This document shows, piece after piece, positions 23,504-26,458 of a DNA stretch of 40,124 nt. The position numbers were made by a program, and so were the translations under genes. Position 1 is the stretch's first letter, and each line of letters starts with the position of its first letter. Below the pieces are notes generated by a model that saw only the letters and a program-made list of their open reading frames with translations, was not told the origin of the DNA and made no database searches. Source of the stretch: a virus; the UHGV virus genome UHGV-2156197; one strand, written 5' to 3'.

Positions 23504-23512
23504 TGATATAAT
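23504..23512 (+). promoter_or_regulatory. extended -10 promoter TGATATAAT for the plus-strand moron
   Basis: Perfect TGnTATAAT; AGAGG SD at 23537-23541 before ATG 23549. Confidence 0.5.
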
Positions 23513-23548: not shown

Positions 23549-23806
23549 ATGACAGATCTGCAGAAACGCATTGATGAACTCGAAAAAACTATTGAAGAGC
23601 TACTTTTAGATCAGCATGCAGCAAGAATTGCTATTACCACGATATCCACAGCTTGGAACTCCCTTGCCAAACAGCCTGGTATGCTTGGCGATAGCTACGA
23701 TAAAGCTTTTAAATCAGCGCCGCCTGTGGAGTTTGAAAACCCAGTAAATGAAGGTTATGCAGAAGAGTTACATAAAAGAGTTGTAGCCCTACTTTCTAAA
23801 TCTTAA
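23549..23806 (+). CDS. hypothetical small protein with coiled-coil N-terminus (opposite-strand moron)
   Basis: 85 aa; only plus-strand gene inside the minus-strand late region; AT-rich; own promoter and SD. Confidence 0.55.
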   Translation: MTDLQKRIDELEKTIEELLLDQHAARIAITTISTAWNSLAKQPGMLGDSYDKAFKSAPPVEFENPVNEGYAEELHKRVVALLSKS

Positions 23807-23842
23807 TCGAATCGTTTGGGCTACCTTTAAGTGGCCCTATTT

Positions 23843-24367
23843 CTAATGTCTCCCTTCCTCAATATCCCTAATCCCTGCCAGTTGGTTGTTACCCTTCTCT
23901 ATCTCTGCAAGTAATGATTGAATCCAGAGAACGGCCTGACAATAGGTTATTGAGCTGGCGGCAGCGGTACTATCATCGGCTGCGTCAGTGTCCCCGGTAT
24001 CGGGGTGCATTGCGCTGGCACGTAAACGGTTCGCGTAGTTGAGCAGCCCACCAGCGACATTAGCAGGAACAGGCAGATCACAGGTTTTTTCACGGCGAAG
24101 AATCTCCCGGTATTCGATAACGGTCTTTTCGGTTCCGGCATCAATCAGCGAGTTCAGGCGACTGGCGTTCTCCGCTACCTGGTTAAACCGGTTGAAGTTG
24201 AACGCCTGGGTAGTTATCACCGTTGCCTGCAGTGCGTTATCGTTGCGCAGTATCCGGTTGTCACTCTCTGACGTGGTCAACGCTGCATTGCTGCGCGCCA
24301 GTAGTACACAGAGCACCGCGATGAAGATGATTGCTGCCATCCCAACAATAACGAGGCTTCTGTTCAC
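23843..24367 (-). CDS. Rz: Rz-type i-spanin
   Basis: N-terminal TMD (SLVIVGMAAIIFIAVLCVLL) then coiled periplasmic domain; GTG 24367 overlaps the endolysin stop (GTGA) with GGGGGA SD; track start 24484 is an upstream GTG. Confidence 0.7.
   Translation of the reverse strand: MNRSLVIVGMAAIIFIAVLCVLLARSNAALTTSESDNRILRNDNALQATVITTQAFNFNRFNQVAENASRLNSLIDAGTEKTVIEYREILRREKTCDLPVPANVAGGLLNYANRLRASAMHPDTGDTDAADDSTAAASSITYCQAVLWIQSLLAEIEKGNNQLAGIRDIEEGRH
23947..24141 (-). CDS. Rz1: Rz1-type o-spanin lipoprotein embedded in Rz in the +1 frame
   Basis: Lipobox LVGC-S, proline-rich mature part; entirely inside Rz; ATG 24141 (track start 24144 is TTG). Confidence 0.65.
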   Translation of the reverse strand: MPEPKRPLSNTGRFFAVKKPVICLFLLMSLVGCSTTRTVYVPAQCTPIPGTLTQPMIVPLPPAQ

Positions 24368-24912
24368 TGGTCTATCCCCCAGCAAGCCAGCGCGCTTTCC
24401 TGGTCTCGCCTTTCTACCTGCCCATAACAACCATTCTTCTGCCCTTTGGTCAGGCGACAATCGCGGCCACCGTCTTTTATCCACCAGCGGATCGCTTCAC
24501 AGGCTCCTTTACGGTCGCCAGCATTAATTCGCTTATAGAACGTAGACGGGAAACATTTTCCGGGGCCGATGTTATATGGGCAGAAAGAAGCGATACCCGC
24601 TTTCTGTGGTTCCGTCAGTGGTACTTTGATATTTCGGTCAACCCACGCCAGCGCTTTATCGCGTTCAATAGCATTTACCTGAGCGCATTTCTCAGCAGGC
24701 AGCTTCATGCCCTGAACTACTGGCTTACCATCAACCATCGTTGCGCCACGACAAATGGTCCATATACCAGAGCCGTCCTTGTACGCTGTTGTGCTGTTAC
24801 CCTCTTTCTCATCCAGAAACTGATCGAGAATTACGGGTGCGGAAGCCCCGGCAAGAATTAACCCAACGACAGCTGCGCTCAGTTTATTCTTCAGCTTTTG
24901 TGGCATAGCCAT
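24364..24912 (-). CDS. SAR endolysin (GH24 lysozyme, P21 R-like)
   Basis: 182 aa; N-terminal Gly/Ala-rich SAR helix (LSAAVVGLILAGASAPVIL) then lysozyme domain; C-terminus CLWGQQ-like (ACWGIDQ) as recalled for P21 R. Confidence 0.85.
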   Translation of the reverse strand: MAMPQKLKNKLSAAVVGLILAGASAPVILDQFLDEKEGNSTTAYKDGSGIWTICRGATMVDGKPVVQGMKLPAEKCAQVNAIERDKALAWVDRNIKVPLTEPQKAGIASFCPYNIGPGKCFPSTFYKRINAGDRKGACEAIRWWIKDGGRDCRLTKGQKNGCYGQVERRDQESALACWGIDQ

Positions 24913-25162
24913 TGCGACGATCCTCCCGTTCTTTCCAGCGGAAATACCAGTTCACTGCACAGGTAATAACGGTGCATGCGATACCGACAATAATTGCCCA
25001 GTCGCTCAGGCTTAACCCTGCAATTCTGTCGGCCAACATCCAGGACACCTCTTTTGCTGTTTTAGCTGTTTCGGCGTATGCCTTCGCTGATACACCGCAG
25101 CCGGTCAGCGTGGTTCCTGTTCCATATGAAAGTCTGCTGTAAATGGTGCTCATTCTGGTCAT
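24884..25162 (-). CDS. pinholin (class II holin, S21-like) with dual-start motif
   Basis: 92 aa; MTRM dual ATG (25162 and 25153); weak TMD1, strong TMD2, C-terminal YFRWKEREDRRN like S21 YFKIREDRRK. Confidence 0.7.
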   Translation of the reverse strand: MTRMSTIYSRLSYGTGTTLTGCGVSAKAYAETAKTAKEVSWMLADRIAGLSLSDWAIIVGIACTVITCAVNWYFRWKEREDRRNGYATKAEE

Positions 25163-25327
25163 AGCCTCACCTCCGATAGTTCGGATGGCGCTGTGTGATG
25201 AAAGGAGGATCAGGCTTCTGGGCTCTTATGCAAAGGTGAAAGTAAGGGTGATTCCCAGAGCCTGAAATAGAAAAGGCCGCCAAATGGCAGCCTATAGATT
25301 ATGTCCCGCGTTTTACTAGAGAGTGAA

Positions 25328-25567
25328 TTAAGCCTCTAGTTCATTTAAATAGCGATCACCCTTTGACGTGATTTCAATCGCTATCCACCCACCTTCATCA
25401 GACTTACTTTGAACAGCATTTACCAATCCCAAATCAGCAAGATCTGAAATGGCAAAATCTACCGTTTTCGCTGGAATGTGAGGAAGATCAGAAGATTGAA
25501 TTGTTTCACGTGGACCAAGTGCATCTGCTCGACGCAGAATTTCGAAATGTACAGATGTGATTTTCAT
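25328..25567 (-). CDS. hypothetical small protein (moron between late terminator and holin)
   Basis: 79 aa; AT-rich; GGAGG SD 7 nt upstream. Confidence 0.5.
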   Translation of the reverse strand: MKITSVHFEILRRADALGPRETIQSSDLPHIPAKTVDFAISDLADLGLVNAVQSKSDEGGWIAIEITSKGDRYLNELEA

Positions 25568-25602
25568 AGCACTGCCTCCGGTGGCTTGTTTTGACCAGCG
25601 GA

Positions 25603-25611
25603 ATTATAACA
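25603..25611 (-). promoter_or_regulatory. extended -10 promoter TGTTATAAT for the 25328-25567 moron
   Basis: Minus-strand TGnTATAAT (plus ATTATAACA) about 36 nt upstream of the ATG. Confidence 0.4.
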
Positions 25612-25645
25612 TATTGATTTTGACGTAGATTGAGTGCCAAAAGAG

Positions 25646-25676
25646 GTTAAAGAAAAACCCGCTCACAGGCGGGTTT
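25646..25676 (-). terminator. rho-independent terminator, tR'-like (downstream of Q-like gene)
   Basis: AAACCCGC-TCACAG-GCGGGTTT with T-rich run on the minus strand, about 95 nt after the Q-like stop. Confidence 0.55.
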
Positions 25677-25768
25677 ATAGAACTTTGGCAACATATCAAA
25701 TATGCTTCAAATATGGCTTATTTTGTTGCATTTTGCAAGCGCGTTTGAAGGAGATAGTGAAATTTACT

Positions 25769-26458
25769 TCACATTTCTGCCACTTTGAGGGCGTCTTCTT
25801 CCTCATAGTATTCAAGAGCCATGGCCAGCGCAGATTCATCAAGCTGGGTAAAAGCGGCCTTTAACCCAGCCCAGTGCCCTGAATAGACACGCAACCATGT
25901 CGAACGGTCAACGCTAACCATGCGGGCCAACGCTGCACCAGCATAGTCTTTATAGGTTTCATTATTTCTGGTTGCGGCAATTTCCTGCCCTGCCAGCCAT
26001 ACCAGGCCAATCAGTTTCTTTACTACGCGCTCCTGAAGGGAATTATCACCCAGGCATTTCTGATAAGTTTTCCAGACGTATTCACACATCATCACCTGGT
26101 GCTTATAGCTAAGGTCAAAACCGTAACAGTACCGCAACCAGGCCTGCTGGTATCCACTAAGCGCGGACACTGCCCTACGCCACGGCGCTGACTCAAATTC
26201 CGCATCTTTTATCGGCGGCATTGGCCTACGGCGGCTGCGTGTTTCCAGCACATACAGTGGCGCGGAAAGCGAGTTAACAAAGCGTGGCCCCTTATCTCCT
26301 TCGAGTTCGACGAGATGAATTCCACGGCGCGGGGTGGCATTTTTATCTGCTGGTGGGTGTTCACTGAAAGCCTCAAGCTGCCCTTTTGTTCCCCCAGAGA
26401 GGTCAGGTAGCGCGCGGCGCAATTCTATTCTGACAAAATTCAGGTCTTGTTGATTCAT
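25769..26458 (-). CDS. putative late antiterminator Q
   Basis: Position immediately upstream of tR'-like terminator and lysis genes; family assignment from memory only; ATG 26458 chosen, alternative GTG at 26479. Confidence 0.4.
   Translation of the reverse strand: MNQQDLNFVRIELRRALPDLSGGTKGQLEAFSEHPPADKNATPRRGIHLVELEGDKGPRFVNSLSAPLYVLETRSRRRPMPPIKDAEFESAPWRRAVSALSGYQQAWLRYCYGFDLSYKHQVMMCEYVWKTYQKCLGDNSLQERVVKKLIGLVWLAGQEIAATRNNETYKDYAGAALARMVSVDRSTWLRVYSGHWAGLKAAFTQLDESALAMALEYYEEEDALKVAEM

Follow-up and report, generated by a model that had tools for sequence, protein, structure and literature searches.

Morons, as defined by Juhala et al. (2000) and Cumby et al. (2012; PMC3594210), are recognised by extra DNA lying between genes that are adjacent in relatives, a deviant composition, a promoter and a terminator of their own, and expression from the repressed prophage (PMC3594210). 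The classical morons of lambdoid phages, such as HK97 gene 15 and the lambda genes bor and lom, encode membrane or surface factors. One account of Stx phages places the stx genes in a slot directly downstream of pR′/tR′ and upstream of the holin gene (PMC8065619). The nearest systems with which the product of the gene described here can be compared are stand-alone MarR-like winged helices, namely PDB 2obp, the PhiH1 repressor-like 3b73, AF1382 2qvo, B. subtilis YjcQ 2hgc and TubR. A precedent of another kind is the fold-back inhibition of transposase translation in IS10 and IS50, in which a sequence immediately upstream of the element's own start is complementary to the ribosome-binding site and occludes it only in external transcripts.

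The window, by which we mean the whole 40,124-nt stretch of DNA that was analysed, is a lambdoid Citrobacter freundii prophage with its late operon on the minus strand. Along it follow early and replication genes (~28–34 kb), DUF968, Q, the lysis genes, terminase, and the head and tail genes. A sequence-only reading had described a 79-aa AT-rich gene between a tR′-like terminator and the holin gene, with an extended −10 promoter and a GGAGG Shine-Dalgarno sequence (SD), and all of these parts are present (Table 1); the strand and a terminator belonging to the ORF are additions to that observation. The GC content is 0.40 in the ORF and 0.42 in the whole cassette, compared with 0.51–0.52 in Q, the lysis genes and the window, and the leader that carries the GGAGG is ~29 nt long. 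Upstream, the gene of the Q antiterminator is called as 229 aa in homologous loci. The sequence that we take, by inference, to be pR′ scores 8/12, which is under the threshold of the promoter scan, and is conserved together with Q in the prophage of E. coli Nissle and in six aligned loci.

Table 1. Positions in the window of the cassette, its neighbours and the other features discussed in the text.
Feature	Coordinates	Strand	Remarks
Q antiterminator, Q82-type (PF06323)	25769..26458	-	Pfam E 2.4e-36; PHROG 304; upstream neighbour, outside the cassette
Putative pR′ late promoter, TTGCAA-17 nt-CATATT	25710..25738	-	Read from the sequence; predicted start ~25703
tR′-like intrinsic terminator, AAACCCGCC-TGTG-AGCGGGTTT + U-run	25645..25676	-	Terminator scan; end of the Q module
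Conserved 22-nt block, TCAATCTACGTCAAAATCAATA	25612..25633	-	Adjoins the −10 element on its upstream side
Putative IHF core match, AATCAATATGTTA	25607-25619	-	Overlaps the extended −10 element
Extended −10 element, TGTTATAAT	25603..25611	-	Perfect TGnTATAAT
Discriminator/start-site segment, TCCGCTGGT	25594..25602	-	Predicted +1 is the G at 25596
Shine-Dalgarno sequence, GGAGG	25575..25579	-	7 nt ahead of the ATG; invariant among same-leader loci
79-aa ORF, predicted stand-alone MarR-like winged helix	25328..25567	-	PHROG 32916
Cassette intrinsic terminator, AGGCTGCC-ATTT-GGCGGCCT, then TTTTCTATTT	25264..25293 (hairpin 25293..25274)	-	Terminator scan
Spacer between cassette terminator and holin gene			~100 nt
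Long stem-loop, TCAGGCTCTGGG ... CCCAGAAGCCTGA	25210-25265	-	Between cassette terminator and holin gene
Holin start motif, MTRM	25160-25190	-	
Holin (PF16080)	25162..24884	-	Followed by lysozyme and Rz
Rz	23843-24484		
65-aa ORF with lipoprotein signal (LLMSLVGC)	23947-24144	-	Different frame inside Rz
Other small moron, extended −10 element TGATATAAT	23504-23512	+	
Other small moron, ORF	23549-23806	+	85 aa, coiled-coil-like; PHROG 16546; GC 0.41
Other small moron, terminator	23818-23837	+	
ORFs of 485 aa and 196 aa	21411-23440	-	Between lysis cassette and small terminase

How does this locus compare with the described morons? The cassette is like the classical lambdoid ones in its extra DNA, GC deviation, promoter, terminator and single small gene, and as far as sequence can tell every hallmark of a moron that is open to such a comparison (extra DNA, composition, promoter and terminator) is found in it. 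It differs from them in that its product is predicted to be a cytoplasmic winged-helix protein and in that it is bound to one genomic slot. This Q-to-holin slot is the one occupied by stx, by gene 067 of HK225 and by genes of the Nissle prophage. What sets the cassette apart from these accessory genes is an extended −10 promoter of consensus sequence together with a terminator of its own, a combination that suggests expression while the prophage is repressed.

We gathered 64 loci from NCBI, ENA, Logan, IMG/VR, E. coli RefSeq and INPHARED, and the gene is present in all but the Nissle prophage (L018) and phage HK225 (L064). First, in the Nissle prophage, Q, pR′ and tR′ are ~95% identical to those of the window, and the homology stops just past the U-run of tR′, after which unrelated genes follow. 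Second, HK225 has the holin gene, the spacer and the second hairpin in common with the window and carries a different, antisense gene between Q and the hairpin. Third, the cassette lies behind two unrelated Q families, PF06323 in the window and PF03589 in L019, L029 and L042 (three divergent alleles), and ahead of at least four types of lysis cassette, with holins of PF16080, PF05106 and PF16931 (with or without PF05449) and varied endolysins; in some loci, further accessory genes stand between the 79-aa gene and the lysis genes. These comparisons show that promoter, ORF and hairpin are a mobile unit of ~360 bp that moves whole between phages. Among the sequenced phages of INPHARED the cassette was found in none, and scans of genome contigs by protein pattern and by promoter block gave no matches. 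A search of the locus against Rfam gave only sub-threshold matches to the Trp and Leu leaders, at the tR′ hairpin, which we read as chance.

The limits of the cassette can be drawn most clearly in the lambda-type loci (PF03589), where TTGCAA-17-TATATT and then TGACATTAACGATGGG (AACGATGGG) lie 5′ of the first hairpin. This arrangement closely resembles lambda pR′ with its AACGAT pause element, which confirms the first hairpin as tR′ and places the start of the cassette after it. The idea that TGTTATAAT is itself the true pR′, with the ORF placed in a '6S-like' leader, was ruled out, because the Q/pR′/tR′ module of Nissle is complete without TGTTATAAT and the lambda-type modules have a canonical promoter. 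A partner specific to Q was also ruled out, since near-identical proteins are found behind unrelated Q families, as was one specific to the holin, since such near-identical proteins are likewise found ahead of different holin types.

The position of the cassette is single throughout: it lies between tR′ and the lysis genes, and does so across unrelated Q modules. This restriction is most simply explained if the Q-to-lysis junction is a recombination-permissive hotspot for accessory genes. The same slot holds the antisense gene in HK225, a ClpP-like protease gene in Nissle and a gene of the candidate defence family PDC-S15 in L042, and the Q-to-holin junction appears to be a hotspot for both accessory and defence genes. 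The gene in L042 (4328-5206, minus strand) encodes an FRG-domain protein that matches PADLOC candidate defence family PDC-S15 (E 2e-109) and is convergent with a distant winged helix-turn-helix (wHTH) homologue in the Q–holin interval.

The putative promoter has the sequence make-up of the extended −10 class: a TG dinucleotide, at −15/−14, stands one base upstream of a good hexamer (TG-T-TATAAT), and the −35 is poor or absent. No usable −35 was found, the best candidates at spacings of 16–18 nt matching TTGACA at 0–1 of 6 positions, so the TG extension would be needed for a promoter at this site; a scan for two-hexamer promoters gave no call there. The motif TGNTATAAT occurs twice in the 40 kb of the window, counting both strands, and this count alone is within chance, since at least two matches were found in 23 of 100 shuffled sequences. 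Both copies are correctly oriented and lie 35–36 nt 5′ of the start codons of two small ORFs of low GC. Every variant of the cassette (TGTTATAAT, TGTTACAAT and TGTTAAAAT) retains the TG and the key −10 positions.

Conservation extends upstream of this element. When copies were recovered from the 64 fetched loci and the window with up to 6 mismatches allowed, the 31 nt made up of the 22-nt block and the −10 element (TCAATCTACGTCAAAATCAATATGTTATAAT) proved to be identical at 28–31 of 31 positions, that is, with 0–3 differences. Between the window and the E. coli variant, 29 of the 31 positions are identical in a comparison in which synonymous sites are saturated (dS = 1.36), and the probability of such conservation under neutrality is P = 7e-11. 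At least four unrelated sequence types are seen among the leaders 3′ of the −10 element, so the conservation of the block is specific to the promoter. The pattern indicates that the predicted promoter is under purifying selection. In the most distant homologue, L042 (37% identity), the upstream block is different and TGTTAAAAT is still present. The block also travels with the gene: it was found in 21 contigs of IMG/VR, all 21 of which carry the gene, and once per genome in 41 E. coli genomes, the same number as carry the cassette.

The 22-nt block has no match to a −35 element and is not palindromic. It lacks −35 character and must presumably bind something, and we consider it a candidate operator or factor-binding site. 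No second copy that could serve as a further operator was found in the window, nor any near-exact copy elsewhere in the E. coli genomes. On the minus strand, AATCAATATGTTA fits the IHF core consensus WATCAANNNNTTR and is kept in most variants of the cassette; since the window holds 2 matches to the IHF core where 1.3 are expected, this site is only a lead.

Downstream of the ORF, the cassette terminator is an 8-bp GC-rich hairpin followed by a U-run (dG -14.9 kcal/mol, z -4.2). In diverged loci the hairpin is maintained through changes from G-C to G-U and from U-G to U-A. Phage HK225 has the same hairpin ahead of its holin gene and lacks the 79-aa gene, so the terminator may belong to the shared junction and not to the cassette alone. 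In the E. coli variant, the hairpin 3′ of the gene has no U-run. One such locus, L029 (4001-5274, plus strand), has the 89-aa E. coli variant, the hairpin without a U-run and then a 231-aa gene (PHROG 30208) before the holin gene; the 89-aa and 231-aa genes might form an operon.

What does the gene encode? An identical protein is annotated as 'hypothetical' in Citrobacter freundii. The ratio dN/dS is 0.13–0.2 between deep branches of the family and 0.3–0.8 between close relatives, which also show intragenic mosaicism, and AlphaFold2 (AF2) predicts the structure of the 79-aa protein with a pLDDT of 92; by these measures the ORF is a real gene under purifying selection. Clustered at 90% identity, the family amounts to 14 clusters; when 1.84 billion representatives were searched exhaustively with HMMER, only 6 clusters came up. 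Its hosts are Citrobacter, Kosakonia and E. coli, the last with the 89-aa variant in 41 of 5426 complete genomes (~0.8%), APEC O78 (NC_020163.1) included. No Pfam, NCBIfam or PADLOC model matched above threshold, and PHROG 32916, of unknown function, is the only family match; in PADLOC, which was searched for defence and anti-defence families, the best match was to the wHTH domains of CARF/Csa3 proteins (E 0.018).

The best Pfam match is DUF2513 (PF10711). The two have in common the pattern LPH...GL(V/L)NA, which is seen with the 119-aa relative P0020, and two distant cluster representatives carry a precomputed PF10711 match. They differ in that the DUF2513 model spans 100 positions as against 79 aa here, and the score of 17.7 bits is under the cut-off of 29.6; an alignment by hhalign of the 79-aa family with a true DUF2513 protein gave a probability of 2.4%. 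A full-text search of the literature on DUF2513 found no paper. A true member of DUF2513 (135 aa, E 3.3e-12) is encoded after the lysis cassette of L006 (7372-7779, plus strand), a sister prophage that has the 79-aa gene as well; a relation between this DUF2513 protein and the 79-aa family is not detectable by hhalign.

In the predicted model, the protein has the winged helix-turn-helix fold of the MarR family. No match to a MarR or PadR sequence model was reported, and the best PDB profile match has E = 0.069. MarR proteins (~140 aa) build their dimer interface from N- and C-terminal helices that are lacking here, the 79 residues being taken up by the wHTH core and one C-terminal helix. The basic wing of MarR (D-x-R-R) is likewise lacking, with S-D-E-G-G at the wing tip opposite the 'KDRR' of 3f3x, and the wing is the most variable segment across the family. 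Conservation is highest in V(D/N)FAISDLA(D/E/K), the helix matched by alignment to the recognition helix of MarR. The protein is acidic (pI 4.8, net charge ~-5), and within the family pI ranges from 4.5 to 6.9, with no basic member. Set against the stand-alone MarR-like proteins named above, it has no detectable sequence relation to them, is acidic and is without basic wing residues, and its binding to DNA is putative. With few exceptions, Rio2 and the N-terminal domain of MotA among them, its structural neighbours with a known role are DNA-binding regulators.

We consider that the locus is best explained as an autonomous moron unit set between the Q/pR′/tR′ module and the lysis cassette, expressed in the lysogen and encoding a regulator, and we assign this reading a probability of roughly 0.6. 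The extra DNA, the deviant composition, the promoter and terminator, and a block conserved beyond neutral expectation together argue that the sequence-only reading was right to call the gene a moron with its own extended −10 promoter. In the lysogen, σ70 polymerase would start at ~25596, independently of Q, at a promoter predicted not to need a −35, and the transcripts would end at 25293-25264, short of the holin gene. Since the terminator would end lysogen transcripts before the holin gene, the repressed prophage would supply the protein. After induction, in lytic growth, Q-modified polymerase from pR′ would read on past tR′ and the terminator of the cassette and enter the lysis genes. The product would be a MarR-like winged helix pared down to the core plus a single C-terminal helix and most likely acts as a small dimeric regulator. 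Our preferred mechanism is autoregulation at the block in its own promoter together with a target in trans; we prefer it because the recognition helix is the most conserved segment of the protein and the promoter block the most conserved DNA. Binding to a protein partner is nearly as likely as binding to DNA, since the protein is acidic and the basic arginines of the wing are absent.

One alternative, which we regard as tentative and, on balance, unlikely, is as follows: the gene would be a moron whose protein does not bind DNA and acts as an acidic winged-helix adaptor or decoy for a host or phage protein, for example in superinfection exclusion or counter-defence. The net charge of ~-5, the pI of 4.8, the lack of any basic family member, and a highly variable wing from which the conserved MarR arginines are missing would all suit such a role. 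The dN/dS of 0.3–0.8 among close relatives, with intragenic mosaicism, fits an interface under changing selection, and other accessory or candidate defence genes, such as that of PDC-S15 in L042, lie at the same junction. However, nearly all structural neighbours with a known role (Rio2 and the N-terminal domain of MotA being among the few exceptions) are DNA-binding regulators, the counterpart of the recognition helix is the most conserved segment, the adjoining conserved DNA block needs a factor to bind it, and no PADLOC or anti-defence family was matched.

We also considered an addition to the moron reading that concerns translation. The 6–9 nt from the −10 hexamer to about +3 might act as an anti-SD sequence present solely in RNA that reaches the cassette by read-through from pR′; translation would then be efficient on the lysogen transcripts started at the gene's own promoter and poor on the late transcript. 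We hold such fold-back insulation to be rather doubtful. The candidate anti-SD sequence is TCCTCTGG; the majority variant of the discriminator is TCCTCTGGT, and the window copy is TCCGCTGGT. In short-RNA folds, the segment that follows the −10 element pairs with the SD or the AUG in five leader types of unrelated sequence. The paired positions, about −6 to +3, would for this reason be mostly untranscribed from the cassette's own promoter. The complementarity is above that of 91–99.9% of 9-mers from the same locus (p = 0.0009–0.09 per type; Fisher P 2e-6 for four leader types). The energy needed to open the ribosome-binding site (−13..+3) is 0.7–4.6 kcal/mol in RNA from the cassette's own promoter versus 3.9–14.2 kcal/mol in read-through RNA, and in 5 of 7 variants the rise in opening energy is larger than in any of the window's 32 control genes.

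Against this, the hypothesis was framed after the pattern had been seen, and the copy in the window is unremarkable, its duplex having p = 0.09 and its ddG of 4.2 kcal/mol lying within the top 22% of controls; a T-to-G change in this copy weakens the anti-SD pairing. Partition-function folds of 150 nt show a small difference in SD accessibility, most permutation controls fail to reach significance, no consensus that could be aligned among the leaders emerged from RNAalifold, and the start site is a prediction. Compared with IS10 and IS50, where the gene controlled is that of the transposase, the gene here is an accessory gene of a prophage that sits in a strongly transcribed late operon, and the evidence is computational and weak in the window copy. 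A combined version, in which the anti-SD, present only in late read-through RNA, silences translation there as a built-in insulator and the 22-nt block is the protein's own operator, strikes us as slightly more doubtful still.

Finally, it is very improbable that the gene is nothing more than the leading gene of the Q-dependent late operon, with TGTTATAAT fortuitous or a non-promoter element such as a σ70-dependent pause signal and with the protein made only during lytic growth: its sense orientation directly after tR′ does mean that Q-modified polymerase must transcribe it, its position is always the same and the number of TGNTATAAT matches in the window is within chance, but the promoter block follows the ORF and not the type of Q and is conserved far past synonymous sites, a terminator right behind the ORF would be purposeless in a pure late-operon gene, and the cassette is dispensable, being absent from related prophages.

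The sequence-only reading had also likened the cassette to a second small moron at 23549 and had suggested a common mode of acquisition or regulation. The likeness in promoter architecture holds, in that TGATATAAT, a leader (~36 nt), a small ORF and a terminator are all present at 23549. The suggestion drawn from it finds support only in the −35-independent promoter type common to both: the two genes are on opposite strands, have no sequence in common outside TGnTATAAT and do not co-occur elsewhere. The gene at 23549 runs antisense to the late operon, none of the 63 other loci examined contains it, its promoter lacks the 22-nt block, and no anti-SD effect was found for it (ddG 1.0 kcal/mol). 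On this comparison the two cassettes are independent acquisitions of the same kind and not a co-regulated pair.

Taken as a whole, the comparative data indicate that the 79-aa gene is a genuine and fairly ordinary moron, encoding a member of an uncharacterised protein family of unknown function. It adds a well-delimited and comparatively validated moron at the Q-to-lysis junction, the slot of the Shiga toxin genes in other lambdoid phages, and defines a small winged-helix family with an unusually well conserved promoter module. If the product is a regulator or exclusion factor expressed in the lysogen, or if the anti-SD insulation is real, the locus would show how accessory genes in a heavily transcribed late operon can keep their expression separate. 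Fold-back insulation, if true, would be a transposon-style device in a prophage accessory gene, tying translation to the gene's own promoter.

Several neighbouring features are of interest in their own right. Between the cassette terminator and the holin gene, the long stem-loop is kept in HK225 and L024 with matched changes in its arms (CTGGG to CACGGG and CCCAG to CCCGTG), and it may serve in the processing or regulation of the late transcript. The holin begins with MTRM, a dual-start motif like the M-K-M of lambda S. The GGAGG of the holin gene lies inside a conserved hairpin, CGCCATCCGA-ACTA-TCGGAGGTG. Opening this ribosome-binding site costs 12.8–14.5 kcal/mol, the second-highest value in own RNA and the highest in read-through RNA among 32 genes tested. 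The same hairpin is found ahead of a different holin (PF05106) in L012 and L020, which suggests a common element for the translational control of holin and antiholin. The 65-aa ORF with a lipoprotein signal that is read in a different frame inside Rz is probably the Rz1 o-spanin. Between the lysis cassette and the small terminase gene, the 485-aa ORF, which is accompanied by one of 196 aa, has a sub-threshold match to glycosyltransferase family 2 (E 5.8e-4, 20.3 bits versus a cut-off of 23.3) and may be a surface-modification accessory gene.
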